Made by a program: the position numbers and the translations under genes. Shown in pieces: positions 1,553 to 41,501 of a DNA stretch of 41,501 bases. The notes beneath the pieces were generated by a model. It made no database searches. It was given only the letters and a program-made list of their open reading frames with translations, and had not been told where the DNA came from. Every line of letters starts with the position of its first letter. The first letter of the stretch is position 1. The stretch is from a virus (taxonomy: Duplodnaviria > Caudoviricetes): the IMG/VR virus record IMGVR_UViG_3300032330_001524, positions 1 to 41,501 of that record. One strand, written 5' to 3'.

Positions 1553-2292
1553 TGTTTTCCTTCTCCCTGAATTGCTTTTCGTTCTTCAACCATTTCCTGC
1601 AAATCAGCAATAACGTTTGCCGCTTGCACCGCGGTAAGGTCCGCGGATTGCTTCACGTTGTAATGCTCTTTCACTCCCAACCAGAAGCTTGCATCAACCC
1701 CGGCCTCGCGCCCAAGGCGCGCCATTTCTGCCAGCGCCTTTACCCCGGCTTTCCGTTCCGCCGGCGCTGTCGGTGCTGCCTGAACTGGTGCAGGTAGTGC
1801 CAGAGGTTCCACCGCCGCCCCGGGAATGCTTTCGACTTCTGACTCGTCTAGCATCCCAAGGCCGCATATTGAAAGCGTTACGCGCCGCTTCGCCTTGGTC
1901 TCCGCCTTCATCAAGGCGTTAGCCACTGCGTCCACCTGAAGGCCTTTAACGGGCACTGCGCCGGTGCTTTCGTCTGTTCTGCCGTCGGGCATGGTGGCAC
2001 GTGCTGTCACTACGTGCACGCCGTCGGTGGTTTCACGGTTGACGATTGATACGCTCACCCGGTGCACTCGGCGCAACTGGTCGGTTGCGTCTCGGCGCGC
2101 GTACAAAACAAGTTTGCCACTAAGCCGGAGGTACTGGAACGGTTGGCTTTCCAGCGTAAGCCCGGTGGCTTCGCATATTCTGCGCACTAGCTCGAGACGC
2201 TCTGCCGGTTGCAGGCGCTCAAGGTTGCCATCGACCACCGCGGTTTCCCACCTCTCCGCGGTGCTTTCCATCGGCATAAGCTCACTTGCCAT
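1549..2292 (-). CDS. Single-strand annealing protein (Rad52/RecT/Erf-superfamily-like recombinase)
   Basis: Start taken at MASEL (SD AGGGAGAGG). ANALMKAETKAKRRVTLSICGLG helix resembles the conserved SSAP C-terminal motif; adjacent to SSB-like gene. Confidence 0.6.
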   Translation of the reverse strand: MASELMPMESTAERWETAVVDGNLERLQPAERLELVRRICEATGLTLESQPFQYLRLSGKLVLYARRDATDQLRRVHRVSVSIVNRETTDGVHVVTARATMPDGRTDESTGAVPVKGLQVDAVANALMKAETKAKRRVTLSICGLGMLDESEVESIPGAAVEPLALPAPVQAAPTAPAERKAGVKALAEMARLGREAGVDASFWLGVKEHYNVKQSADLTAVQAANVIADLQEMVEERKAIQGEGKQ

Positions 2293-2485
2293 CTTGATTC
2301 CTCTCCCTTCTAATTTCGCTTCTGTCAATCCGAACACTAGGCCCGGCGGTAATGCGCAGGCTCACACGCCCACCCGCCGCCGCCTCCACCATAATCACAC
2401 ACTCGTTTTCCCCTTCGCCGATCACTAGCTCTTCGCCGACTTTACGGTTTAAGTAGAGCCCGCCAAAACTTGGCCCGTATGTCAT
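2282..2485 (-). CDS. csrA: CsrA/RsmA-family RNA-binding translational regulator
   Basis: LYLNRKVGEELVIG...VSLRITAGPSVRIDRSEI aligns with the CsrA pattern MLILTRRVGETLMIG...VRIGVNAPKEVSVHREEI, including the equivalent of the RNA-binding Arg. Confidence 0.75.
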   Translation of the reverse strand: MTYGPSFGGLYLNRKVGEELVIGEGENECVIMVEAAAGGRVSLRITAGPSVRIDRSEIRRERNQDGK

Positions 2486-5635: not shown

Positions 5636-5950
5636 TTAAGGCCTGCATTCAAGGCGCCGCCGGTAGTTCCCCGCGTCTTGAATTACGTGTTCGTTATAGC
5701 TGGTCCACGACTTCAGGTGCCCGAAGACAAAGTGGCAATCCCTGCAAAGCGGTATCAGGTTGGTGGGCTCCAATTCCAGTTCCGGCGCAATGTGCACCGG
5801 TACCAGATGGTGAGCTTCAAGGTCGCGATCTGTGCCGCATGCTAGGCAGTCGGCGCCCTTCAAGGTCCGGTTGCGAAGGGCACTCCACCCCGAGGCCCGA
5901 GGCGCCCCGAATATCATCCGCATGGTGGAAGTGAACAAGCCGTCAATCAT
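5636..5950 (-). CDS. HNH endonuclease
   Basis: CLAC...LEAHHLVP...NLIPLCRDCH...H. Confidence 0.9.
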   Translation of the reverse strand: MIDGLFTSTMRMIFGAPRASGWSALRNRTLKGADCLACGTDRDLEAHHLVPVHIAPELELEPTNLIPLCRDCHFVFGHLKSWTSYNEHVIQDAGNYRRRLECRP

Positions 5951-6122
5951 GCCGCACCCGCCAGGTGATTGGCGCCGGCTTGGTGGGCCCGGGCCTTGGT
6001 GTTGGTGTTGGCCGTGCTGTTGGCCTCCTCACTGGCGCGACGTACCGCCGCACCGATAAGGGCGCCCCGGGTCATGTCGGACATGGTGGCGCCGCCAAGA
6101 TAAACCAGACGATAGCAATCAT
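5943..6122 (-). CDS. Small secreted Pro-rich protein with in-frame UGA (candidate selenoprotein, CPTU)
   Basis: MIAIVWFILAAPPCPT-UGA(6074-6072)-PGAPLSVRRYVAPVRRPTARPTPTPRPGPTKPAPITWRVRHD. ATGA overlap with the upstream gene, 8-nt overlap with the HNH start, and a hairpin downstream of the UGA. Confidence 0.6.
6028..6061 (-). promoter_or_regulatory. Bacterial SECIS-like hairpin
   Basis: CCUUAU-C-GGUGCGGCG(GUA)CGUCGCGCC-A-GUGAGG; the apical loop starts with GU, 26 nt after the UGA. Confidence 0.55.
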
Positions 6123-6370
6123 CGGTACCTCACACACGCATACCAGCCGTTCCGCCCACGCGCCACGCCGATTTCAATTGCCACCCGCTGCCCGTAGTAG
6201 CAACAATTCCGGATAGCTTGCCCGGCGCTTGCCGCTGAGAACCCAACGCCTTCATACCGGTAACTGCCGCCCCTGTGGGCCATTCGCCCCGCCTGTGCCG
6301 AAGCTTGGGCGGAAGCTTGTGCGCTCTGTGCTGGCGCCAGTGCAAGCGCCGCCAATAGAATCCATGTCAT
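6119..6370 (-). CDS. Secreted minimal CAP/SCP-like protein
   Basis: Signal peptide MTWILLAALALAPA; RMAH...YEGVG...IGVARGRNGWYAC resembles CAP-domain H/E/GVA motifs. Confidence 0.55.
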   Translation of the reverse strand: MTWILLAALALAPAQSAQASAQASAQAGRMAHRGGSYRYEGVGFSAASAGQAIRNCCYYGQRVAIEIGVARGRNGWYACVRYR

Positions 6371-6403
6371 CAAATCACCCTCCAACCAGCTGCACCCGAT
6401 TCG

Positions 6404-7884: not shown

Positions 7885-8226
7885 TTAGAGCCCCAATTGC
7901 TTGGTGAGAATCCGAATTGCGATGCTCAAAACCAATGACCACGGGAACAGGCCTTGCACTGCTTGGGCGCAAGTCGGTTCCTGTTCGATAGCCGCCTCAA
8001 GCACCGCCAAGTCGCCGGCGCCTTCCAAGGTTTCAGCCACCGGGTCGGCTGTAATCAGAGGCCCACCGCCGAGGGTTTGCGATAGCGCATAACCTGCCAC
8101 GTTCCAGCACGCATGGACCAGCACCGGCGCCGGGATGTCGCCGCCCTTGACGCGATCCACGAGCAGCCCAAGGGCATAGGTTGGGAAGTCGGTTGGGTAT
8201 GGGGTAAGCATCATCAGATACTCCAA
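7885..8226 (-). CDS. Hypothetical protein, C-terminal hydrophobic helix
   Basis: LFPWSLVLSIAIRILTKQL; tiles between neighbours. Confidence 0.65.
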   Translation of the reverse strand: MEYLMMLTPYPTDFPTYALGLLVDRVKGGDIPAPVLVHACWNVAGYALSQTLGGGPLITADPVAETLEGAGDLAVLEAAIEQEPTCAQAVQGLFPWSLVLSIAIRILTKQLGL

Positions 8227-9101
8227 TTGATTCGGCGCGCCGGGAAGCCGTCAAGGCCTGAAAAGGCCCAACTGTCACCAGCTCCCAACATTCTATCAAC
8301 TACTTCCGCATCAGCCCAAAACCCGCACGCCGGCGGGTTGCCGGCGCCAATCGGCCCGGTGTGTTTGTTGTCGCCCCAGCTATTGCAAATAAATCCGCCG
8401 GGCCTGCTGCCGCTCTTATAGCCGATAAGCGCCATGCAATGATTCCAGGTTCCCGCGGCCTTGGCGAATCCGTCGGCATCTCGCTGGAACACAAACCCGC
8501 GGCTTGAACAGATTGCGATTCCGTACCCACTAGCCAAGGCTTGGCAAGCCTGTTGAAACGTTTTCACCAACGTAACAGCTCGCACTGGGTGGAGGCGCGC
8601 CACCGTCTCAATGCTGTCGGGTACACCAGTCCTTCCCCACTGCCGGCACCGTGTTTCATCGTATTGGCGCAAATCTTCGGCGCCGTAGACTTCCCGATCC
8701 ACGACACCCCACCGCCGCACAAACTCCGCCGCCCACGCGCCTACCGAACCGTCACCGCTGATCTTGCCTCCGCCCACTTCTACCCGACTTCCGGCGTAGA
8801 TGACTTCTTGCGCCAGGTCCTTGATGCCTTCCGCTTCGCCGGCCAGGATTTCCGCCGCCATGGTTGCTTCAATTGCTGCCGCGGTGCCAAAGCTCACGCA
8901 GCTCCCCACCTGCCCTTGGTTCCTGCCCGGCCACGGCTTGCCGGTGATGGTCTCGCGGGCTTTCCAAAGGAAGGCTTCCGGCGGTATGGTCTCTCGCTCT
9001 GCCGCGGGCGTCATCGAAAAAAACGGGAACGGCTGGGCGCCGGCCACCACCGCCACCGCTTCCGGATCGTCCACCCACCCCGGCACATAATCGACCATCA
9101 T
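8214..9101 (-). CDS. Papain-like (C1-type) cysteine peptidase
   Basis: RNQGQVGSCVSFG (Gln/Cys), NHCMALIGY (His), ICNSWG (Asn). Confidence 0.9.
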   Translation of the reverse strand: MMVDYVPGWVDDPEAVAVVAGAQPFPFFSMTPAAERETIPPEAFLWKARETITGKPWPGRNQGQVGSCVSFGTAAAIEATMAAEILAGEAEGIKDLAQEVIYAGSRVEVGGGKISGDGSVGAWAAEFVRRWGVVDREVYGAEDLRQYDETRCRQWGRTGVPDSIETVARLHPVRAVTLVKTFQQACQALASGYGIAICSSRGFVFQRDADGFAKAAGTWNHCMALIGYKSGSRPGGFICNSWGDNKHTGPIGAGNPPACGFWADAEVVDRMLGAGDSWAFSGLDGFPARRINWSI

Positions 9102-9751
9102 TTAAGGCTCTCCAAGATTTTCCCAAGCTTGTTATAAATTTCCGTTGCCGCGGTGCGAATAGAAGGGGTGAGCGCCGCGTCTGGGTCTGTTGGCAATACC
9201 GCCGCTAATTCCTCGCCCAATCGGTTCCGGATAGCTTCCAGCGCCATGGGTGGCAATGTCGCCACGGCCTGCCGGCGCGCAAACGTGAACAGGTCACCGG
9301 CTGTTTTGATCTCGGGATCTGTTGCCGCCTTGGCTGCTCGCCGGTATACGTCTGCCAGCGCCACCACCTGCTTTGCCTTGTCTGGGTCTTGATTGACTTC
9401 AAGCAGCGCCTGCAACGCCACCGCTAGCGGGTCCGTTGGTGCCACCGGCCCGGGTGGCACCGGTGGAGCGCTGCCCACTGTTACGACGCATACCGCCGCC
9501 TCGCTGGGGATGTCTCCCGCCGCCGTCCATGCCAAGACTTTGTACTGCCCCGGCGCCATGGCTGAAAAGATTGCGCTCCGGGTCGATTCCATCACGATAA
9601 GGTCGGCATCGTCTCCCGCCAGGTACCACCGGATTAGCTTGCAATCTGTCTTGGCTGCAATCTGTACTAGGCGCCCCGGCCTTGCCGCTACCGCCGGCGG
9701 TAGGGTCACCGTAGGATCTGCCGCCAAGGCTGCCAGTATTAGCCACATCAT
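9098..9751 (-). CDS. Secreted protein: signal peptide, Ig/PKD-like beta domain, Pro linker, helical domain
   Basis: MMWLILAALAA; PGQYKVLAW; PPVPPGPVAPTDP. Confidence 0.7.
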   Translation of the reverse strand: MMWLILAALAADPTVTLPPAVAARPGRLVQIAAKTDCKLIRWYLAGDDADLIVMESTRSAIFSAMAPGQYKVLAWTAAGDIPSEAAVCVVTVGSAPPVPPGPVAPTDPLAVALQALLEVNQDPDKAKQVVALADVYRRAAKAATDPEIKTAGDLFTFARRQAVATLPPMALEAIRNRLGEELAAVLPTDPDAALTPSIRTAATEIYNKLGKILESLK

Positions 9752-10005
9752 TGTTTCGCCCCATTCATGCGCGAGATTTCGGTGTTGGAACGGGCCAGCT
9801 CGGTAATTTCCCGCGCCATGTGCTCTTGTGTTGTTGCGATTGTTTCAAGGGTTTGGCTTAGGCTTGAAAGGAACTCAAAATGCCTGTCCCGAATCGGGAT
9901 GATTAGGTGCTGGGCGATCCATTGCGAAGTAGACCAGATGCCATAGCCGATAGCCACAAGCGCCGCCGTAGGCAATCCAACGGCTTGAATCCATGTCGGG
10001 TCCAT
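9748..10005 (-). CDS. Holin-like membrane protein
   Basis: One N-terminal TM segment followed by a coiled coil; first gene after the tail module. Confidence 0.55.
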   Translation of the reverse strand: MDPTWIQAVGLPTAALVAIGYGIWSTSQWIAQHLIIPIRDRHFEFLSSLSQTLETIATTQEHMAREITELARSNTEISRMNGAKQ

Positions 10006-21789: not shown

Positions 21790-22371
21790 TTAGCCCCACT
21801 TCGGAATGTCGGCTCGAATATGGGCCAAGGCCTGCTCGTTAAATGGCAAGCCTATCAAATCTGTAACCGCTTGCAATTGTGTCGCCGGGTCAATCGTCGT
21901 TTCGGGAAACGCCACCCGCATTCTATCCGCCTCGGGCCAGGCCTGAAACAAACCTTCCAAGCTTGCCACTTGACTGGTGATTATTTCCCGCGCCTCTTCA
22001 ATTGAAAGATCGTGCCGGAGGGTTGAATAGGATGCCAACGTGGTTTCGATGTTTCGGGTGGTCCAAACCAAAACCTTGCGATCCACTTGGCATGCCTCAA
22101 CAAATGATTCCATCATGCCGGGAATAAATAGAAGCCGGTGGCTTTTAATGCCCCAAACGTCGGGCATTGAACGGGCTGCGAAGTATTCGTCCCACCCCAT
22201 AAAACCTTCAACGTCAAGAATCCTGTCCTTGTAGCTGCCGGTTGGATGCCACCCGGGCCAATCGCGCTCCACCGGCGCCGGGTTCATGTCTGCGCCGGAT
22301 TCATGCAAGAACCGCGCCAGCAATGAGGTGCCGGCGCGGTAGGTTCCTGCAACAATCACGCAGGTTGCCAT
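21790..22371 (-). CDS. Sulfotransferase-family (P-loop) protein
   Basis: IVAGTYRAGTSLL (5'-PSB-like), WGIKSHR, TTRN..TTLASY (3'-PB-like); start revised to 22371 (TAATG overlap). Confidence 0.7.
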   Translation of the reverse strand: MATCVIVAGTYRAGTSLLARFLHESGADMNPAPVERDWPGWHPTGSYKDRILDVEGFMGWDEYFAARSMPDVWGIKSHRLLFIPGMMESFVEACQVDRKVLVWTTRNIETTLASYSTLRHDLSIEEAREIITSQVASLEGLFQAWPEADRMRVAFPETTIDPATQLQAVTDLIGLPFNEQALAHIRADIPKWG

Positions 22372-22787
22372 TAGTTCTGGAAGCGTAGCGGGCTTGAGAT
22401 CGTCACCGAAAACGTGCCGGCGGTGCTGGTCACGTCGGTGCCAAAATCCACGTAGGCCACCAGTTCGTCGGCGCTTGCAAGGCCTCCGCGAGATTTGTAA
22501 ATCACACCGGCCCTGGCCGTGATGGTTGCCGTAGTCCAAGACGTGATTGCGAAGGTGATGTCCTCGCGGTTGTTCGTGTTGTCCTTGGTGCAGGTTGCCG
22601 CCGCGGCGTTGCCGCCGGTGGTGTAGCCGGTACCGGAAACCTCGTTGGTGACGTCGCTACGCTTGGCGTGAGTTTTGGCCGCGGTGTAGGAACTGGTCAC
22701 CAAAATCATCTTGAAGGTGTCGGTATCAAAATCAATTGACCCCTTAACCGTATCATCGAGGCATGAGTTATAAATCAGGCTTGCCAT
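22371..22787 (-). CDS. Virion structural protein (fibre-associated)
   Basis: IDFDTDTFKMIL...NEVSGTGYTTGG...ITARAGVIY...LVAYVDFG pattern typical of phage minor structural proteins. Confidence 0.7.
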   Translation of the reverse strand: MASLIYNSCLDDTVKGSIDFDTDTFKMILVTSSYTAAKTHAKRSDVTNEVSGTGYTTGGNAAAATCTKDNTNNREDITFAITSWTTATITARAGVIYKSRGGLASADELVAYVDFGTDVTSTAGTFSVTISSPLRFQN

Positions 22788-25864: not shown

Positions 25865-27136
25865 TTAGTTAGCCAACCAGGTGAACAGCGCCGGCCCGGT
25901 TGGAATGCCGCTGCTGTCGGTGTTGCCGGTGCGTCCTTCCGTCATATAGCTACCACTACGGGGCGCCTTGGATTTTTGCGCCAATGCAAGGCGCTGTACC
26001 TGACGCGCCGCGGTTTCCCTTGGCATGCTGGCCAAGTCTCGGAGCAAGTCCTTAGAAGGTTTCAAGCCCACCGCTTCGCACAATTTGCGCGCGTTGCGAA
26101 TGGCTTTGGCTTGGCGCCCTTCCATGGAAGGCTTTTTCTTTTCTTCGGGTGGCTCTTCGTCCATTTCGGAGCCTTCGCCGTCTGCTTCTACTGTCTCATC
26201 ATCCATGGCCGATTTTTCTTCGGCTTCCATCGCTGGCTTCTCTTCCTCGCCGTCGTAGGCTTCCTCGGAAGGAACCTCTTCTTCGCCGCCAAGGCTCATG
26301 GCCAGTTGGTCAAGCAGGTCTTTCAATTGCGAAACGATTTCCGTTGTATCCATTTTCGTTGCTCCTGTGGCTTCGGGCAAATCTGTAGAAGTCGGCTTGA
26401 TTTTTGAAAACCTTCCATTTTTGTAATTCTTGGGATCGGGTACCGGTTCCCCCCTACTTGCTTTTGTGCCGGCGTCCTTCATAATGCCTGCAATAAGGAT
26501 CGCAAAGTATTCCCAATCTATCTTGCCTTGCTTTGTTTTTGCGCTCTTGGCGTTGTCAATTGAAGTATGGTATAGCTTCTGCCATTCTTGAACCAATTTC
26601 ATGTCTTCGCTGCTGGCTTCCTCAATTGGCGCTGTTGCTTTTTTCATTTTCTTGCTCTCGCTCAGGCTCTTGGTTGTTGCCGGGTCTGCCACAAGGTCCA
26701 CGTGCCGCACCTCCACAATCTTGGACACGACAAACACCCCGTCCTTGTTTTCTTCGCCCTCGCCTTGGGCGTTGTGAGACATCCCGAATGCGTCTGGCAT
26801 GCGCTCCGCCGCTTCGCAAATTCGTTCCGCCATGGGGTGGGTTTTCAGGTACACTAGGTCCCCGTAAAGGCCTTCGCCCTCCACCCACCGAATGCGAGTA
26901 AGCTTGCCAAATCTGTCGTAGGCGCTGCGCTGTTGGTCCGGTGAGTCCTTCGGGTGGTCAATGTTTACGTGAACGCCTTCATACAATTTCTTCGCCGCTT
27001 GGATTGCCGCGGGAAGGTACTGGCGCCCATTCTCGCTGACAAGGCCCAAGATCTTAACATTGGCAATGGTGCCGGCTTCCCGATTAACTCGGATGCCGCG
27101 ACCACTCAAAACAGATTCGTGTATGGGGCGTCTCAT
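25865..27136 (-). CDS. Prohead protease-scaffold, possible independent in-frame start
   Basis: ATG 27136 (MRRPIHES) starts the protease domain; TATACT lies 8 nt upstream. Confidence 0.6.
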   Translation of the reverse strand: MRRPIHESVLSGRGIRVNREAGTIANVKILGLVSENGRQYLPAAIQAAKKLYEGVHVNIDHPKDSPDQQRSAYDRFGKLTRIRWVEGEGLYGDLVYLKTHPMAERICEAAERMPDAFGMSHNAQGEGEENKDGVFVVSKIVEVRHVDLVADPATTKSLSESKKMKKATAPIEEASSEDMKLVQEWQKLYHTSIDNAKSAKTKQGKIDWEYFAILIAGIMKDAGTKASRGEPVPDPKNYKNGRFSKIKPTSTDLPEATGATKMDTTEIVSQLKDLLDQLAMSLGGEEEVPSEEAYDGEEEKPAMEAEEKSAMDDETVEADGEGSEMDEEPPEEKKKPSMEGRQAKAIRNARKLCEAVGLKPSKDLLRDLASMPRETAARQVQRLALAQKSKAPRSGSYMTEGRTGNTDSSGIPTGPALFTWLAN

Positions 27137-30100
27137 GGGGTTTAAGTATAAACACCGGTGAGGTACTGCGCCAAAAGCTTCGCCCAGCGTGATTCCTGCC
27201 CGGAGTGCTCGGCGTTCCAATCTGACTGCCTCTTCTAGTCGTTTCTTTTCTCCGGCCTTCCGGATTGCTATGTCTAGTTTTAGCTTTAGTTTCTTGGCTC
27301 GTTTCTCTAATTCACTCCGCTGAAAACCAAACGCCTCGTAGCTTTCATACCCTGATTCCTTTTTTCTGCGCGCGAGCTGCGCATCTCGCCAAAAGTCTTG
27401 CCCGCGCTTGACTAGCTCCGCCGGTATTGGTTCGCCGATTTCATACGGGTGGTCGCCGGCCATTATGCCAAACCGTTCCCCCATCTCAACGTTACCAATC
27501 ATCCATTTCCTAGTAGTTGGGCTTGTTCTGCTCACTTCAATAACCGGCGGTGGTTCCATCGCGTCCACTTCCGCCTTGATCTCATCTGTCTCTTTGATTG
27601 CCGCATCAAGCACACTGATTGCCATTTGCATTTTTGCATATGTCTTGGCGGTAGTGGCAATGTTGGCAATGTCTTGGGCCTGCCCGGGAGTGTACCCGAG
27701 CAAACGCGCCGCGGTTTCTAGGCTTACCAGCCTAAGCGTTCCATCGGCGCCTCGAACCTCGAATTTGTGAACAATCAGTCTGCCGGTTTCGTCGCTCACG
27801 TCGGCGCGATCCCAATTGCTTACCTTCTTTGCTACCACGTCATCGGCTGTCTGCACATCTTCGACTTGGTAGGCCCACTCATACGAAACCAGTTCGGCGC
27901 CGGTGTTGCCTTTGATTGCCACCGGGAACACCACCTGCGCGTCGGATTTCAACCGGCCCGCGGGAATGTACTTCGGAAGCTTCTTTGGCTTCGGTTCCGG
28001 TACCGGCTCGGGCTCCGGCGCTGGCTCCGGTTCAACGGTTTCCTGTGGCGCCGGATTATATCCGTAGGCGTCGCCTTCTTCCTCTTCTTCATCCCATCGG
28101 CGTTCATCTTCCGCAGGTTCCGCCGCCGCGGTTTCCGTCGGGAAGTCCCAAGGATCGCCGCCGCGGGCTGCTCCGGCTGGCTCCCAATTGGCTTCGCCTT
28201 CTTCATCTTCCCATCGGCGTTCATCTTCTTCGGGTTCCGGCTGTTCCGCCGCCAGGGGTGGCGCCACCGCGCCGCGGGCGAATGGGTCATCGTCCCACGG
28301 GTCGGGGTCCGGTGTTGCCACCGCGGTGGGCGCCGTCACCCATTCGCCTTCTTCGTCATCCCACACTCGCTCGGGTTCTTCCGCCGGTTGCATCGGTGGT
28401 TCTGCCGGTGCCGGCGCGTCATCGTCCCAATTGAATGGCTCGGTTGAAACAGGAACGACGGGGCGCTCGGGATCAAACGCGTAGTCGGGGTCGCCCTGCA
28501 ATTGGTAGGCTTGATCCGCGTAAAATCTTTCTTTGTCGGGCCTTTCAATGCCACCGGCTTGGTGGCGCATCAAGATATCCCACAAAATCTGGTTGGGATC
28601 GGCTGAGGCTTCGTTTTCGCCTGCCGCTGCTATTTCTGCGTTTCTGTCGCCGAATAGAAGCGCCGACCACTCGAATTCCCGTTGCAAGCTTGGGAGAATT
28701 AAATCCCAATGCGGGAACTTGGCGTAGTCATTCCATGCCGGGCTCTTCCGTGATGGCAAGGGGAGCTGTCTTTTCTTTCCGCCCTTGGTGGCTCCTGTTT
28801 TTTTTGCCTTTGCCACCTTGTCGGCTTGCGCCAAGGTGTTTTTTTCTTCCTTTGGCTTTGAACCTTTGGATATTTCATACGCTGAAAACTGCCTCTTGAA
28901 TTCTTTTACTGCCTCGACTTCCGCGCGGTATTTTTCTAGTTGGAAACTCCACCCTTGTTCTGCCGCTGCTCGTAACGCCGCGGGGTCCACGCCTGCCGCT
29001 ATAGCGTTCACATCAATAATCTTGTCAACCGTCTGCCGCTTGATGATTGCAGCGTATAAAGCATCTCGGCGCTTAACTGTGCCCAGTCCCGAATCCGGAA
29101 GGGTTGCAAAATCAATCCCGACGTGAAGCGCCACCTTGGCAAGCTGCTCGCCGCTGAGTTCGCTTAGGCCATTAAACAGTTTGATATTCTTGACGCCCTT
29201 GCCGAATGCCGCTTGGGCCAAGGTCACGATTTCGCCGTACCTGTCCATCTCTACATCGTCGGCGCCGTCTGGCATCGGTTCTGCTTCGTCCCGTACCACG
29301 TTTACTTCCGGGGGCGGTGGCGCTGTTGCCTGTGGGCCTGCCGGCGTCATTACGTCAAGCGCGTTCCGGAACTTTTCGGCTTGGCGCCGGAGCTTCTTTT
29401 CAAGGCCTTCCACCTGATCCGCCACGCCGCGGGCTTCCTTGCGAATGGTTCTATGATCCGCGGGCAAACCCGCCGCGCGCCGCAGTACCTCGGCTTGGTT
29501 GTCGCGCCATAGGTTCAATGCCGCGGTTCTGATTCCGCGGTTTAACTTGGGGTCCTCGGATTCATCAAACACGCGGAAGATTATGCCGTCAACAATCCAT
29601 GCCCGGTTTTTGCCTTCGTCGCCGGCGGGGTAACGTGTCGGCGCTGGGCCTTCCATCTCGCGAGTCTGGCGCCATATGTCCTCGGCTTGGTCTGCCTGTT
29701 GTTGCAAGAGCGCCTGAACTTCCTTGCCCACCTGAATACGCCACGTTGCCGCGGCTATCTGTTCGTATTCTCTTACTTTGGCGGGCTTCAATCCTAGCGC
29801 TTGCGCCGCTTCCGCCGGCGTTGCCAATACAGAGCGGGTGCCGTCGGGCGATGTCGTCAATGTGGTCTTGGGCTCGGCAAACAGGTCCCTTGGCGTGAAC
29901 TTGTCGATGGCCACCAATTGTTCCCAAACGCCCTTGATGGTCTCAATGTTGTTGCCGGCCAATTTGCCGCCAAGTCCAAATACCGGGCGGTAAACCTCAT
30001 GCGATATCGTCGCCCCGGTGGGGCCTTCCAGCTTGTACGAAAACTTGATCGGCTGCCCGTAGCTGGGCACTTGTTGCAACGGGTCGGCCTTGACTGCCTC

Positions 30101-31531
30101 GCCGCGGAAAGCTTCGCCCTTGCCTGCCTCGCGGCTGAACTTCGCCTGCTCGGCGTCAATCCTGTCTTGCTCCACCGGCGCCGGTAGTGGCAAGGGCTCC
30201 GGCGCTTCCGGTGTTGGGCTGTCCGGTGCCGTGTACGGGTGAGGCGCCGGCGGGGTGAGGTCTTGCACCGGTAGCGGTTCGCCTCCGTCTTCCGCGGTGA
30301 GATAGCCAAACCGTTGTACCTGCCGAGCCAGTCGTTCACGCTCCGCCAAGACTTCCGCCACCCGGTTCATCCGGGCTTCACGCCGCGCCGGTGTCTCGGC
30401 TATCAGGCGCTCCAATTGCAGAAGCTGCCCGGTGGCGGGGTCGATGAAGTGAGCCCACGTCGGCGCCTGCCCGGCTGGAAGGCCTGCTGTGATTGCCGAT
30501 AGGCGCCGCGCCCCGACTGCCCACCGGCGCTCTTGGTCACTGGCGTTGGCAAACCAATCCGAATAGACGTTTGGATCTTGGACTAATTTGTGATCATTAT
30601 CGGTGAACAGGGCCCGCGCCGCGGGGTTGTTTTCGATGTCGGGGTCCACGTCCAATACCGGCGTAAGATAGCACCGGCAATTGTGGGCGACGGTTCCATC
30701 TTCTTCAAGCGGGGGCCGCGGCATATGCGTTGTAGATTGTTGCCCCGGCTTGGGCCGCACATAGTACACCGTCCCGTTCCTTGCCGCGTGATGGGGCCTG
30801 ACGCGCCAGTCCATGGTTGCGTGAATCTGGTAGCCTGCCACCAAGTCCCCAAGGCCGCTGTAGCAATCCATCCGCGCTTCATGCGCCACGCGCATTCCCT
30901 CAGTTCTTGCCACTCGCCGCGCCGATGTTCTGACACCCTGCACCGCGGGCAGCATAGTCCGCGCCATGGCTTGGATTGTTTGGCCCTGGCTGATTCCTTG
31001 GATCACGATGTTGGCAAGCTGCTCCGGTGGCGCCAAGGCGCTTTGGGCCGCGATGCGGGCCTGCCAGGTCAGGCCGTTGGTTGGACGGGCAATGATTGCG
31101 GTGGTTTCGTCATGGTCAAGCGCCGGGAACAATTGCGCCTCGACTTGGGCCCGTTGTTCCGGATTAAGGCGCCGGGCTTCGGTGAGGTCAGGCCTTGCCG
31201 GCGCCGCCAGGGTCAGGGCGGTGGCGATGACTGCCCGCGGGGCTTCCGCCAGTACTTCCTCACGCGCCGCGGTGTGGGCCCGTTTGGCAATCTGCCGGAG
31301 GCCCGCATCCAGCCCCTTAACGGTGAGCGTTTGAATCTCCCGCAGGATTGAACCCAACTGGGTGCGCGCATCCACGGGAAGGGGCTTCAATGCGATCAGG
31401 CGCAAGGCGCGCTTCCATAGTCGCACTACCTTGGCGTCAATGCCGTCGGCCACCGCGTCGGCATGCGCCAGGGTGCGCGCCTGATTGACGCCCACCCGTG
31501 CCGCCATGCGTGAATTGAATACACTGCCCAC
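25865..31531 (-). CDS. Head polyprotein: MuF (Mu gpF/SPP1 gp7-like) + cargo region + prohead protease + scaffold
   Basis: ARRVARTE...DWRVRPHH..RNG...PP...NCRC (MuF); NGRQY...IDHP...GMSHNAQG...VDLVADPA (T4 gp21-like protease); acidic helical C-terminus. Confidence 0.85.
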   Translation of the reverse strand: MGSVFNSRMAARVGVNQARTLAHADAVADGIDAKVVRLWKRALRLIALKPLPVDARTQLGSILREIQTLTVKGLDAGLRQIAKRAHTAAREEVLAEAPRAVIATALTLAAPARPDLTEARRLNPEQRAQVEAQLFPALDHDETTAIIARPTNGLTWQARIAAQSALAPPEQLANIVIQGISQGQTIQAMARTMLPAVQGVRTSARRVARTEGMRVAHEARMDCYSGLGDLVAGYQIHATMDWRVRPHHAARNGTVYYVRPKPGQQSTTHMPRPPLEEDGTVAHNCRCYLTPVLDVDPDIENNPAARALFTDNDHKLVQDPNVYSDWFANASDQERRWAVGARRLSAITAGLPAGQAPTWAHFIDPATGQLLQLERLIAETPARREARMNRVAEVLAERERLARQVQRFGYLTAEDGGEPLPVQDLTPPAPHPYTAPDSPTPEAPEPLPLPAPVEQDRIDAEQAKFSREAGKGEAFRGEAVKADPLQQVPSYGQPIKFSYKLEGPTGATISHEVYRPVFGLGGKLAGNNIETIKGVWEQLVAIDKFTPRDLFAEPKTTLTTSPDGTRSVLATPAEAAQALGLKPAKVREYEQIAAATWRIQVGKEVQALLQQQADQAEDIWRQTREMEGPAPTRYPAGDEGKNRAWIVDGIIFRVFDESEDPKLNRGIRTAALNLWRDNQAEVLRRAAGLPADHRTIRKEARGVADQVEGLEKKLRRQAEKFRNALDVMTPAGPQATAPPPPEVNVVRDEAEPMPDGADDVEMDRYGEIVTLAQAAFGKGVKNIKLFNGLSELSGEQLAKVALHVGIDFATLPDSGLGTVKRRDALYAAIIKRQTVDKIIDVNAIAAGVDPAALRAAAEQGWSFQLEKYRAEVEAVKEFKRQFSAYEISKGSKPKEEKNTLAQADKVAKAKKTGATKGGKKRQLPLPSRKSPAWNDYAKFPHWDLILPSLQREFEWSALLFGDRNAEIAAAGENEASADPNQILWDILMRHQAGGIERPDKERFYADQAYQLQGDPDYAFDPERPVVPVSTEPFNWDDDAPAPAEPPMQPAEEPERVWDDEEGEWVTAPTAVATPDPDPWDDDPFARGAVAPPLAAEQPEPEEDERRWEDEEGEANWEPAGAARGGDPWDFPTETAAAEPAEDERRWDEEEEEGDAYGYNPAPQETVEPEPAPEPEPVPEPKPKKLPKYIPAGRLKSDAQVVFPVAIKGNTGAELVSYEWAYQVEDVQTADDVVAKKVSNWDRADVSDETGRLIVHKFEVRGADGTLRLVSLETAARLLGYTPGQAQDIANIATTAKTYAKMQMAISVLDAAIKETDEIKAEVDAMEPPPVIEVSRTSPTTRKWMIGNVEMGERFGIMAGDHPYEIGEPIPAELVKRGQDFWRDAQLARRKKESGYESYEAFGFQRSELEKRAKKLKLKLDIAIRKAGEKKRLEEAVRLERRALRAGITLGEAFGAVPHRCLYLNPMRRPIHESVLSGRGIRVNREAGTIANVKILGLVSENGRQYLPAAIQAAKKLYEGVHVNIDHPKDSPDQQRSAYDRFGKLTRIRWVEGEGLYGDLVYLKTHPMAERICEAAERMPDAFGMSHNAQGEGEENKDGVFVVSKIVEVRHVDLVADPATTKSLSESKKMKKATAPIEEASSEDMKLVQEWQKLYHTSIDNAKSAKTKQGKIDWEYFAILIAGIMKDAGTKASRGEPVPDPKNYKNGRFSKIKPTSTDLPEATGATKMDTTEIVSQLKDLLDQLAMSLGGEEEVPSEEAYDGEEEKPAMEAEEKSAMDDETVEADGEGSEMDEEPPEEKKKPSMEGRQAKAIRNARKLCEAVGLKPSKDLLRDLASMPRETAARQVQRLALAQKSKAPRSGSYMTEGRTGNTDSSGIPTGPALFTWLAN
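27145..27174 (-). promoter_or_regulatory. Possible internal promoter for a near-leaderless protease transcript
   Basis: TTGGCG, 18 bp, TATACT, 8 nt, ATG; no SD present. Confidence 0.4.
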
Positions 31532-35031: not shown

Positions 35032-36096
35032 CTAATCATCTTGTTTTCCCGGCCTTAGCCATTGATCAATAACGGCCCGTGCTATTTGTTCTGTCATTTT
35101 CGGCGGTACGCTCATGCCTACCATATATTTGCCAATCGTGTCAGTCTTGGCGTGGTAATCGTCGGGAAAACTTCCAAAACGCTTTGCTTCTCTGAAGGTT
35201 ATTCTTCGGCATTCATCCCAATGCCTAATAGCCGGGCCCGATGGTAATGTCACGCACAAGGCGTTTTTATCTAATTTCTTTATTGAAAAGCCTGTTTGTT
35301 TTCCCGTCTCTCTCATTGCCGGCTTTCCATAATCTGATCCGCATTTTGTTTTGTGCCACCACTTCCTATCGTTTGCTGTCGCCGCAGTTTCTTCACGTTC
35401 ACCCGCCGTCAATTCTTGCACATCTCTTGTTGCTTCGCCAGCACTAATCCATCGGTGCTTCGGCGCAAATCTTAATAATGGCGCCTCAATATCGTTTCGC
35501 AGCGCACAAAAAAACACTCGCTCCCGGCGTTGCGGTACTCCACAATCTGCCGCATTCACAAGGAACAATTGCGGCCTGTATCCAATTTTTTTTAGCCTTT
35601 CCATCACAAGCTTCGTGTAACCTTTTGCGTTGCCCATGATCATTCCCTTAACGTTTTCCGCTATGGCAACGCGGGGCTTTAAGCGCTCCACCAGGTCAAG
35701 GTAATCAAAGAACAAGTCGCTCAGTACCTGAGAAGCCTGCCCTTCCCGAAAGTGCTTTTTTTTACCCCAATCTTTTTGCCGATTCCCCGCCATTGAAAAC
35801 GTGCTGCACGGTGGCGATCCATCAAGAATATCCAAGGCGAATAATTCTTCGGGAAGCTCCGCGGTTAACAAATCACGAATCGGGCAAAGATAATACAAAG
35901 GCGGGTTCAAGTTTTTTTTGTAATGCCACGCCATTTCCGGGTCGATATCGTTTGCCGCCACAATCTTGCAGCCTGCCCGCTTATACCCCATTGAAGAGCC
36001 GCCGCCACAAGCAAACGTGGACATAACCTTGATGCCGTTTTGAGGCACTGAATCAAGGTCCGATAGCTTCCAACTTATTTCGCTAAGCTCTTTCAT
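35032..36096 (-). CDS. C5 cytosine DNA methyltransferase
   Basis: TFACGGG, GSPPCSTFS, ENV, QRRERVF, VGMSVPP. Confidence 0.93.
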   Translation of the reverse strand: MKELSEISWKLSDLDSVPQNGIKVMSTFACGGGSSMGYKRAGCKIVAANDIDPEMAWHYKKNLNPPLYYLCPIRDLLTAELPEELFALDILDGSPPCSTFSMAGNRQKDWGKKKHFREGQASQVLSDLFFDYLDLVERLKPRVAIAENVKGMIMGNAKGYTKLVMERLKKIGYRPQLFLVNAADCGVPQRRERVFFCALRNDIEAPLLRFAPKHRWISAGEATRDVQELTAGEREETAATANDRKWWHKTKCGSDYGKPAMRETGKQTGFSIKKLDKNALCVTLPSGPAIRHWDECRRITFREAKRFGSFPDDYHAKTDTIGKYMVGMSVPPKMTEQIARAVIDQWLRPGKQDD

Positions 36097-36595
36097 TGTT
36101 AAACTCAAATTTACATTTCGGGCAAATCGTATCAAACTCAAATTCTTCCACGTCTACTTCTTCCGTCTGGCCTTCTTCCGCGCCAGGTATCACTCCCGCG
36201 GCCTCCGCCAGTTCCGCTAGCATCGTTGCCAAGGCCTGATTCCCCGTCTGTACATCCCTCAGCAGGCTGTCCAACTTTGCCGCGTCGCTGTCCGCCATGG
36301 CGCCGATAGGGTCATAGGTTGCGAGTATCTTGTCGGCTTCGGACTCCGTCACATCAAGCACTAGCACCGGTATTATACCGGCGCCGGCGGTTTCGCTCCT
36401 CAAGTGCCCGTCGATCAACATCAGGCCTTCCGGCGTCTCGCGGGCCAATACCGCACCCGCAAACCCTACCTCGGCGAGAAGGCCTTGGAGCGCTTCGGCT
36501 TGGGCCTTGCCATGCGTGCGCCAGTTCCGCGGGTTGGGTATCAGGTCACACGCCGGCACTCGCCTGAGCTCTTTAATCCTGTCCCGAATCTTCAT
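36083..36595 (-). CDS. ParB/Srx-like N-terminal domain protein with C-terminal CxxC
   Basis: LIPNPRNWRTH...LIDGHLR...CPKCKFEF. Confidence 0.85.
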   Translation of the reverse strand: MKIRDRIKELRRVPACDLIPNPRNWRTHGKAQAEALQGLLAEVGFAGAVLARETPEGLMLIDGHLRSETAGAGIIPVLVLDVTESEADKILATYDPIGAMADSDAAKLDSLLRDVQTGNQALATMLAELAEAAGVIPGAEEGQTEEVDVEEFEFDTICPKCKFEFNNERA

Positions 36596-39164: not shown

Positions 39165-40310
39165 TCAATCATCTCTTGCTTCCTCCGCTATCCTCCTGCC
39201 GATCCACTGCATAACCGGCACCGCCATTGAATTGCCAAGCGCCTTGTATCGCGGCCCGTCTGGTGATTCAGTCTTCTTGCGCCAAGGTATATTGGTGTAA
39301 CCATCTGGAAAGCCTTGCAGTCTTTCGCATTCTGTTGGCGTGAGCCGGCGCACGGCTGTTGATGTTGCCACCGCTGCCGTGGCGTTTCCGCTTTTGCTTC
39401 CGCTTCCTAATGCGTGAGTAGTGTTTTCGCTGCTGATTGGATCTTGTGTTGGATGGAAGGCTATCGCCACCGCTGTTTGATTATCGCCCATGTTTTTTCG
39501 TAGCGTGCCTGTGACCTCATTCGTGAAGCGGCTTTCGCCACCTTCTCGGCCTGCAATGCCTGGCTCAAAGGCGGTGGCAATTAGTCTGCCTGTGTATGCG
39601 TCTTGTCCTGAGTAACTGCCGGGGTGCGAGTCAGGGCATAAGGCACCAACAACTAAATGCTCTCCTCTGGAGCTTGGCACTCCTCCCGCACCACCGCTTC
39701 TAAGGCAGTTCGCAACATTGGTGGCAATTCCTTTCCCCTTTTCTCGGCTCGGCGCAGGATTCCGGCACACGCTTTCGCACTCAAAAAGAACCTTTGCGGC
39801 ACGTTGCCAGTCTCCAAGACATCCGACAACGAAGACACGACGGCGCCGCTGGGCCAATCCGAACCACTGAGCGTCAAGCACTCGGTAGGCCCACCCATAC
39901 CCCAGCTTTGCCAGCGCCCCGAGGAAGGTTCCAAAATCCCTTCCTCGGTTGGACGACAATACTCCGGGGACGTTTTCCCAAACGAGCCATCGAGGTTTAA
40001 ATCGTTCAGCAATCGCCAAATAGGTGAGCATGAGGTTCCCGCGGGGGTCGTTAAGTCCTTGCCTGAGCCCTGCAACGCTGAACGACTGGCAGGGGGTTCC
40101 TCCGGCCAAAACGTCAATTGCACCAATTCTTCCACTATCCCACTCCCTATATTTCAGCATATCGCCTAGGTTTGGCGTTTCCGGGTAATGGTGCGCCAAT
40201 ACTGCTGACGGAAAAGGCTCGATTTCAGAATACGCCACCGCCTGCCAGCCTAGTGAATGCCACGCTACGGTAGCGGCTTCAATGCCCGAGCAGACGCTAA
40301 GATATTTCAT
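39165..40310 (-). CDS. C5 cytosine DNA methyltransferase
   Basis: MKYLSVCSGIEA, GGTPCQSFS, WENVPG, QRRRRVF, RRLTPTECERLQGFPD, LGNSM. Confidence 0.95.
   Translation of the reverse strand: MKYLSVCSGIEAATVAWHSLGWQAVAYSEIEPFPSAVLAHHYPETPNLGDMLKYREWDSGRIGAIDVLAGGTPCQSFSVAGLRQGLNDPRGNLMLTYLAIAERFKPRWLVWENVPGVLSSNRGRDFGTFLGALAKLGYGWAYRVLDAQWFGLAQRRRRVFVVGCLGDWQRAAKVLFECESVCRNPAPSREKGKGIATNVANCLRSGGAGGVPSSRGEHLVVGALCPDSHPGSYSGQDAYTGRLIATAFEPGIAGREGGESRFTNEVTGTLRKNMGDNQTAVAIAFHPTQDPISSENTTHALGSGSKSGNATAAVATSTAVRRLTPTECERLQGFPDGYTNIPWRKKTESPDGPRYKALGNSMAVPVMQWIGRRIAEEARDD
39653..40135 (-). CDS. Nested alternative-frame ORF in methyltransferase (beta-polypeptide-like)
   Basis: 160-codon same-strand ORF ending LSDVLETGNVPQRFFLSAKACAGILRRAEKRGKELP; arrangement like M.EcoHK31I alpha/beta. 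Confidence 0.55.
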   Translation of the reverse strand: MEELVQLTFWPEEPPASRSALQGSGKDLTTPAGTSCSPIWRLLNDLNLDGSFGKTSPEYCRPTEEGILEPSSGRWQSWGMGGPTECLTLSGSDWPSGAVVSSLSDVLETGNVPQRFFLSAKACAGILRRAEKRGKELPPMLRTALEAVVREECQAPEESI

Positions 40311-41501
40311 CCGGTAGCCTCCACCATTGCTTGCCGTCTCGCTCCTCTTGTTCCACCCGGGCGCCTTCCTTGGCTTTATATAGCCGACTTGAACCGATGC
40401 CAGAAGCCTGAGCATCATTCCGGATTAGGGAAACTCGCTTCGGGCCCAATGCCAATGCCTCCCGTAACCAATCCATGTCGCCCCCCAGGTTTGCCGCGGG
40501 CCTGTCCGGTTCGCCGCCGGTGGCGTCGGCGCCTCGGGGCGGGTCCAAATCGTATTCGTTGCCGGCGCTGCCCATCGTCACCCCAAGCGCCGGCGGTTTC
40601 TTGCTGTTGGTTTTGCTTACTTGCAACCGGCGCCGATTCTCGGCTGTTGCGTCAGGGGCGTCAAGGTTAATGACCTGCCTTACTGCGCCAACAATCCGAT
40701 TGCCCAAAACCTGCCCGCCACGGTTTAGGTGAGTGACCAGCACGATTGAAACGTTGGATCGGGTGGCGATCTCCGCTAGCGGTTTAAAAAACGCCTTGGC
40801 TTCCTCGGGCCTGCCCTGATTCCTATCGGTTGCGTTGCCGCACGTGTCCACAAACACCACCACCGGTTGCACTCGCCGGATTCGCCGCTCAAGCGCTGCG
40901 AGGTCTTCAATGCTGTCCAAATTGGTGCCGGCGTATGGGTTGGAGCGGTTGCCGTTAAGAACAATCGCTTCCGGTGCAAACCCGAACTCCCCCGGTATGG
41001 TCCCCAGTTCAGCCCATTGACTATCGGCTGCAATCCACATGACGCGAGAGCCCACCGGGTGCGTCGCCGGCGTTCCATCGGGCCACGGAAGGCCCAACCA
41101 TAGGCGCCGTGCAATGTCGGCACATAGGCGAGTTTTACCAATGCCGGGGTCACTTGCCAAGCAGGTAAGCGTCCCGCGTTGAATCCACCCCGGCCAAGTC
41201 CACGTGATGGTTGCCTGAAGGGCGATAAGGTCCGCCGCGGTTGCGTCTGGGTCACCTTCCGGCGGTATATCCTCCGGCACTGACTCCGGCCCGAGGTACG
41301 ATGCCGCGGGCCTTGGTGCAGGCCTTCCCGCGGGCTGGGCCTGCCTGCCGGCGCCAAGTAGCCGGCCAGTTTCCTTGGCGTTCTTCGCCGCGCTGCTAAT
41401 CTTGTGCGCCAGTTCCGGCTCTGTCCACGGTGGCGCGCAAGTCTGATTCCATTCTCGAAGCAAGGCTAGCGCTGTCTCCTGATCTAGCCCGAAGCCTTCC
41501 A
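40297..41501 (-). CDS. Primase-helicase, C-terminal part (RecA-fold AAA_25/RepA-like helicase)
   Basis: Walker A SDPGIGKT, Walker B VFVDT, LVTHLNR; joined to 1..1006 across the junction. Confidence 0.88.
   Translation of the reverse strand, partial: EGFGLDQETALALLREWNQTCAPPWTEPELAHKISSAAKNAKETGRLLGAGRQAQPAGRPAPRPAASYLGPESVPEDIPPEGDPDATAADLIALQATITWTWPGWIQRGTLTCLASDPGIGKTRLCADIARRLWLGLPWPDGTPATHPVGSRVMWIAADSQWAELGTIPGEFGFAPEAIVLNGNRSNPYAGTNLDSIEDLAALERRIRRVQPVVVFVDTCGNATDRNQGRPEEAKAFFKPLAEIATRSNVSIVLVTHLNRGGQVLGNRIVGAVRQVINLDAPDATAENRRRLQVSKTNSKKPPALGVTMGSAGNEYDLDPPRGADATGGEPDRPAANLGGDMDWLREALALGPKRVSLIRNDAQASGIGSSRLYKAKEGARVEQEERDGKQWWRLPDEIS
41379..41501. repeat. Terminal direct repeat (copy 2)
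   Basis: Identical to 1-123. Confidence 0.95.

Follow-up and report, generated by a model that had tools for sequence, protein, structure and literature searches.

The DNA analyzed here (the window) comprises an entire virus record of 41.5 kb, whose minus strand carries genes for terminase, portal, capsid, a sigma factor, methylases, a papain-like peptidase and an HNH endonuclease. On the same strand lies a gene of 180 bp (6122..5943) with an in-frame TGA at codon 17 (6072..6074), which yields a product of 59 residues if the UGA is read as sense; its translation is MIAIVWFILAAPPCPT*PGAPLSVRRYVAPVRRPTARPTPTPRPGPTKPAPITWRVRHD*. The ATG (6122-6120) overlaps the TGA of an upstream 88-aa gene (6119..6385, minus strand; hydrophobic N-terminus, weak CAP-domain lead) as ATGA, and the Shine-Dalgarno-like sequence GAGGT (6127..6131) is located 4 nt upstream, confirming the coupling to the upstream stop that the first-pass annotation had described. 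This ATGA coupling is confined to the window's clade; most relatives have GAGG/GCGGT-type elements ahead of the gene start. Residues 2-11 (6090..6119) form a hydrophobic N-terminal segment, as judged from mean hydropathy and the helix of a structure model. They are followed by the C-P-T-UGA (CxxU) motif, in which Cys14 (6081..6083) is invariant in the family and encoded synonymously by TGT or TGC. The TGA is likewise invariant, and the next bases are always CC (Pro). A SECIS-like hairpin (6027..6061) consists of a lower stem of 6 bp, a 1x1 mismatch and an upper stem of 9 bp (6054-6034), with the apical loop GUA (6043..6045) located 26 nt past the TGA; the hairpin with a GU-starting loop at this distance had been noticed at first reading and was found as described. 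The Pro/Arg/Lys-rich tail (5946..6032) terminates in an invariant Trp motif, the Trp sitting 3-6 residues before the C-terminus throughout the family. As originally reported, the frame stays open for 42 codons past the UGA, and its final stop overlaps the start of the downstream HNH endonuclease gene (5636..5950, minus strand, PF01844) by 8 nt; the HNH gene adjoins the recoded gene in the window's clade and in the relative L096 only. The same annotation had called the gap of 170 bp otherwise unexplained, which did not hold, since a 45-codon ORF in another frame (6084..5947, minus strand), a gene-finder call whose frame is not conserved, fills the same gap.

The TGA is kept in all 26 related records besides the window, which represent at least two phage groups. 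Together with the window, the family comprises 21 distinct gene sequences with a protein identity of 57-93% (19 aligned). Different searches gave the same result: TGA was found in all of the 10 viral loci detected by protein search, in 22 of 22 records detected with DNA patterns that allowed any codon (21 viral records and one genome record), in 14 of 14 distinct family members from an N-terminal scan that covered 38 of 64 parts and left the third base of the codon free (TGN), and in both metagenome contigs matched via the protein. The 53 matches of the pattern scan comprised 23 family members and 30 chance matches, which were discarded. A metagenome scan covering 53 of 64 parts yielded at least seven loci, two of them true members, both with TGA; of the other five (L167 to L171), the two that were read, L167 and L169, were rejected as members, being without the gene start and the VRR motif. 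Since an assembly error at this codon would have removed the basis of the proposal, sequencing runs were compared. The likely source run has the same letters at a depth of 74, which is not independent of the window record. Contigs from all four other runs, belonging to four studies, span the codon and show no variant at 6072-6074; in the same contigs nearby synonymous sites vary and indels in the gene tail are 6 nt long, and one contig of run X4 has a compensating pair of 1-nt gaps at 6058/6063. The internal TGA is thus real and not a sequencing or assembly error. Its invariance alone is weak evidence for recoding, because many true TGA stops are likewise invariant among close relatives.

The region downstream of the TGA evolves as a coding sequence. 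Parsimony changes at codon positions 1/2/3 amount to 16/6/47 upstream of the TGA, 15/5/17 between the TGA and the hairpin, 0/1/13 within the hairpin and 43/39/86 in the tail. After the TGA, pN/pS is 0.50 in the TGA frame versus 0.84 and 1.37 in the other frames of the same strand and 0.71-1.25 in the frames of the opposite strand, values obtained from an alignment that was codon-guided in the TGA frame and from sequence pairs that are not independent. The TGA frame remains open for 36-47 further codons in all 21 sequences, so that homologues conserve the downstream frame, as the proposal demanded, and this frame is under codon-level selection. The codons between the TGA and Val24 include an invariant Pro and one 3-nt insertion and show the codon pattern of selection.

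These data bear on one alternative, a true stop that releases a 16-residue peptide, followed by a separately started product. Such a product could come from the ATGA-started frame, which comprises 42 codons in the window and is coupled to the HNH gene, or from a GTG at Val24, which opens an ORF of 36 codons. In all but one of the 21 sequences the TGA is part of an ATGA, the frame in the window ends in ATGA on the HNH start, and its protein is the one deposited by gene callers; the GTG-started 36-aa ORF also exists in the window. However, the ATGA-started frame runs for anything between 15 and 52 codons across the 21 sequences, is interrupted by TAA in the close relative L120 and has no ATG in L096, and the deposited protein belongs to a cluster of only two members. 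A start at Val24 is impossible in 4 of 21 sequences, which have GTT or GTC, and the codon lies inside the stem; the selected codons ahead of Val24 also argue against it. We therefore consider a true stop highly improbable. Nothing beyond the occurrence of a stop in an open frame speaks for a sequencing error, a pseudogene or a genome-wide reassignment of TGA. Error and pseudogene are contradicted by the TGA in all relatives and in the contigs of four other runs, and by the selection downstream. Elsewhere in these genomes TGA serves as a normal stop: it ends 16 of 45 genes in the window and is exchanged for TAA or TAG at 12 of the 42 gene ends compared, which does not agree with a code of the 4/25 type. 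In addition, no tRNA, tRNA-Sec included, scored above the cut-off in the window or in 23 related records. This group of explanations is next to impossible. Since the frame past the TGA is coding and TGA is not reassigned, recoding is specific to this site, and the UGA is very probably read through as sense.

The hairpin of the window has a folding z-score of about -2.2, with 7 of 200 shuffled sequences equally stable. A published model of bacterial SECIS elements, in the part of the article (PMC13188914) dealing with it, specifies a loop of 3-9 nt, a stem of 4-16 bp and at most -7.5 kcal/mol; one of the first two bases of the loop must be G (followed by G or U), at a distance of 16-37 nt from the UGA. 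This model was applied with a custom script rather than with bSECISearch. When one mismatch was allowed, all 21 sequences satisfied it, showing that homologues conserve the hairpin; the background was 4-7.5%, from 62 of 1500 codons picked at random in the window and 60 of 800 GC-rich codons. With a contiguous stem required, 15 of 20 relatives passed; for random codons the figure was 34 of 1200, and one true TGA stop out of 16 passed, without a GU loop. Twenty of the 21 sequences have a GUA loop at 26 nt, and L096 has GUU at 29 nt. The G of the loop occupies the third position of a CGG Arg codon, and both this G and the closing C are invariant. Three synonymous sites in the hairpin vary solely between bases that keep the pair, the single amino acid change (Tyr to Phe) affects the free third loop base, and one site loses its pair in four sequences. 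Two-sided compensatory changes were absent from the family alignment, in which the covariation score was no better than that of shuffles. Folding z-scores of seven members range from -4.2 to -0.3, two of the seven being no better than shuffles, and L115 and L097 favor another fold over 60-70 nt. Because the hairpin overlaps the conserved VRRYVAP codons, constraints on protein and on RNA are confounded. Rfam gave no match and no holder of the RNA was listed. A covariance-model search of the window and related records revealed no second site, only antisense echoes and weak matches, and a scan for the TGA-plus-hairpin pattern (30 of 64 parts) revealed no new family.

An alternation of TGA with TGY among homologues had been suggested as a test, and here no Cys form was found. 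A word-index protein search with the read-through product detected no homologue, HMMER against 1.84 billion representatives returned one match, to an unrelated repeat protein, and no Cys or Trp version, and the annotated phage collection contained neither a homologue nor a Cys form. Pattern scans revealed no Cys or Trp version at the TGA codon, nor did a six-frame survey of 158 related loci (1.1 Mb of related phage DNA) reveal a Cys form. These homologue searches reach close relatives only, the query protein being short and of low complexity. Pfam, NCBIfam and PHROG gave no family match for the product. According to passages of PMC13188914, nearly all selenoproteins have Cys homologues.

Given that the codon is read as sense, the question is by which route. 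We consider it likely that the UGA is decoded as selenocysteine via SelB and tRNA-Sec of the host, resulting in a 59-residue peptide. A programmed leaky read-through that needs no selenium, with a near-cognate tRNA for Trp or Cys inserting at a fixed ratio, would give products of 16 and 59 residues. The coat/A1 pair of phage Q-beta is a precedent for two products made in this way, and UGA followed by C is a weak stop context in bacteria; in the family the TGA is always followed by C and is preceded by ACA in 20 of 21 sequences. Leaky read-through also works without a Sec host and, should both products be required, accounts for the absence of a Cys or Trp version. Yet it leaves three features unexplained, a Cys that is invariant three residues before the UGA, a loop G that is invariant at a synonymous site and a SECIS-fitting loop 26-29 nt away in all 21 sequences, and TAA or TAG never takes the place of the TGA. 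On balance leaky read-through is distinctly unlikely. A SECIS-dependent insertion of cysteine by a host SelC*/tRNA-ReC, instead of or besides selenocysteine, fits all of the sequence evidence equally well, since tRNA-ReC decodes UGA as Cys given a downstream SECIS, as stated in the relevant part of PMC13582414. The same part of that article reports tRNA-ReC-type tRNAs in about 17% of Sec-type genomes, alongside tRNA-Sec in the cases it lists. This rarity and co-occurrence tell against cysteine insertion as the route, and for a gene requiring just Cys a mutation of TGA to TGY would suffice, a change that was not seen in any sequence; we give this route very little credence. Selenocysteine thus remains the favored reading of codon 17.

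Gene-carrying phages are 30-42 kb in size, and the family comes from freshwater phages. Carriers of the gene are phages similar to the window and an HK97-type group that bears an integrase and has few genes in common with the window; together with its codon and hairpin, the gene is common to phages having unrelated terminases. It is always encoded on the strand of the structural genes, and its neighbors change: in other members the next gene encodes a 101-aa protein, a tail-region protein or a metallophosphoesterase, often without overlap. The 101-aa neighbor lies before the terminase in some members, and the 113-aa gene of the window does not align with it. Among related records without the gene, none of seven extra records and neither of two virus records showed a credible match, and several of them are near complete. 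The gene is an accessory late gene, since related complete phages do without it. A selenium-dependent coupling to HNH translation had been offered as a purpose of the read-through; this is rejected, because the next gene varies between members and often does not overlap. In the window the ATGA frame at the TGA (5947-6075, minus strand) ends in ATGA on the HNH start, and in the window's clade a ribosome stopping at the TGA could be handed on to HNH; the hand-on frame is broken in L120 and absent in other clades. The placement of the gene in a lysis-position cassette was borne out in part: in L096 it lies two genes after the papain-like peptidase, whereas in others it is found in the tail region or before the terminase. 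The peptidase, which may have a role in lysis, is encoded in 8-9 of 11 records compared, two 18-kb fragments being without it; its co-occurrence with the recoded gene says little, because it is also present in relatives that lack this gene.

Further observations were made on the surrounding genes. A block at 8214-10005 (minus strand) contains genes for an 85-aa protein, a 217-aa protein, the papain-like peptidase (PF00112) and the 113-aa protein; it is common to otherwise dissimilar phages and is a candidate for an unusual lysis module. In distant phages (L070, L072, L077, L079 and L080) other small genes occupy the same slot after the 88-aa gene; they have short hydrophobic starts and basic low-complexity tails, several end in a Trp-basic motif and one has CxxGxC. 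The window also encodes an 1888-aa protein (25865-31531, minus strand) with an N-terminal head-morphogenesis domain of the phage Mu F / SPP1 gp7 type and a long remainder without annotation, and two C5 cytosine methylases (35032-36141 and 39165-40418, minus strand) with a patchy distribution in relatives. A gene of the sulfotransferase family (21790-22539, minus strand) lies among the structural genes.

Sec machinery was not found in the phage, as had been noted, and the machinery would have to be supplied by the host. The sole named genome record with the gene is a Sphingorhabdus bin, which is without SelA; among 101 genomes of that bin's family, one was found to have SelA. Contigs C1 and C2 of this bin (L191) are a near-whole relative of the phage, filed there, and RefSeq proteins take the Sphingorhabdus name from it. 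Three observations led to the rejection of Sphingorhabdus as host: the two phage pieces are separate contigs that match the phage from their ends, the single CsrA match in 61 genomes of the bin's family lies on that phage contig, and the attP-like tRNA-Pro half of a gene-carrying temperate phage matched 1 of 401 Pseudomonadota genomes, with two mismatches. The Sphingorhabdus label is probably a mis-bin. A related phage is labeled Betaproteobacteria in the databases, in conflict with the Sphingorhabdus label. Searches with terminase, sigma factor, sliding clamp, integrase and peptidase pointed to no informative host. Judging by how the short signal peptides are built and by the presence of a CsrA gene, we suspect a planctomycete. 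Full Sec gene sets occur in some planctomycetes (G. obscuriglobus, I. pallida) and not in others, as far as the relevant section of PMC4807772 goes. The CsrA-family translational regulator (PF02599) is encoded at 2282-2485 (minus strand) of the window and also in a temperate relative (L468:6218-6553). A 3' half of tRNA-Pro(GGG), 47 nt long, lies just before the integrase gene of the temperate phage contig L316 (586-632) and recurs unchanged in L468 and L470; it is likely an attP core, through which the host might be traced. A 59-nt tRNA-like element (L312:1501-1559, minus strand; L453:16300-16359) with acceptor, D-like and T arms and no anticodon arm occurs in those two gene-carrying phages that diverge most; it resembles tRNA-Sec weakly (21.7 bits, E 0.77) and may be due to chance.

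The products of the family are 52-64 residues long and mostly unstructured. They contain about nine basic residues and 17-32% proline, and acidic residues are nearly absent. The hydrophobic start, with a mean hydropathy of 2.2-2.8 in the 21 sequences, appears from the sequence to be a short signal peptide or membrane anchor. An AlphaFold model shows a single N-terminal helix (residues 2-10) and no fold, at low confidence (pLDDT 61.5, pTM 0.17). With about 60 residues, a hydrophobic start, a Cys, many prolines and a position in a late operon, the product is reminiscent of Rz1-type o-spanins, which have a lipoprotein signal with a lipobox before the Cys. Unlike Rz1, all members have A-P-P-C, with no lipobox and no charged n-region; no overlapping Rz partner was seen, the position is not fixed to a lysis block and there is no PHROG match.

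In its recoding signals the gene corresponds to bacterial SelB/SECIS genes (consensus bSECIS), with the same in-frame UGA, a G-U-N hairpin within the ORF and the CxxU motif, a common Sec motif according to excerpts of PMC13188914. It differs from them in being phage-encoded without Sec genes, with no Cys homologue found, and in specifying a mostly unstructured peptide instead of a folded oxidoreductase. The SECIS of E. coli fdhF, as presented in part of PMC8659212, has G23/U24 in the loop, a bulged U17 and an upper stem 11 nt from the UGA, whereas in the phage gene the GU is at positions 30-31, the loop is farther from the UGA and there is no bulged U. Closer in size are the selenopeptides KCU-star/DUF466, CC/Se motif NF041239 and selenobacteriocin TIGR04081, described in sections of PMC13188914; they are likewise short, have Sec near Cys and, like the phage gene, are easily missed by gene callers. 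Compared with the selenopeptides in those sections, the phage product is phage-borne and has an APPCPT-U-P motif, a hydrophobic N-terminus, a Pro-rich tail and no NCBIfam match. A tie between phages and Sec decoding is also suggested by three huge wastewater phages that carry tRNA-Sec; the corresponding part of PMC10747093 describes tRNA genes only and names no selenoprotein gene, so that a tRNA without a named gene there stands against a candidate gene without a tRNA here. A bacteriophage selenoprotein gene was not found described in the literature searched, mostly open-access journals, and a term search of the main texts of a 2026 review and of BSepDB returned neither 'phage' nor 'virus'. 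What is new is a peptide family confined to phages and apparently Cys-less; the recoding itself is of the standard SECIS type.

With selenocysteine at codon 17, the following course can be envisaged. Host SelB bound to the GU loop would deliver Sec-tRNA to this codon; without such delivery the ribosome would stop, and a stub of 16 residues would be released. Through its short hydrophobic start the full peptide would reach the cell envelope, placing the Cys-Pro-Thr-Sec pair beside the membrane, followed by an unstructured, basic and proline-rich tether that ends in the terminal Trp motif. From the motif and the late-operon position we tentatively put forward that the peptide has a thiol/selenol redox function, exerted in the envelope at a late stage of infection. 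Cysteines of envelope or virion proteins might be reduced or reshuffled, and the phage's own papain-like peptidase would be an obvious candidate target. As a broader and rather unlikely reading, the family may be a phage-born, Sec-only peptide without a Cys form, exchanged among unrelated small phages of one freshwater host group and acting as a selenium-dependent redox switch in the envelope, with the host selenium supply deciding between stub and 59-residue peptide and thereby tuning a late step (lysis or virion maturation).

If the UGA is indeed decoded as selenocysteine, small phages without machinery of their own would exploit Sec decoding by the host, and the gene would mark the host of its phage as a freshwater Sec user. 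The product would be one of the smallest selenoproteins, invisible to searches for Sec/Cys pairs and mis-called by gene finders.
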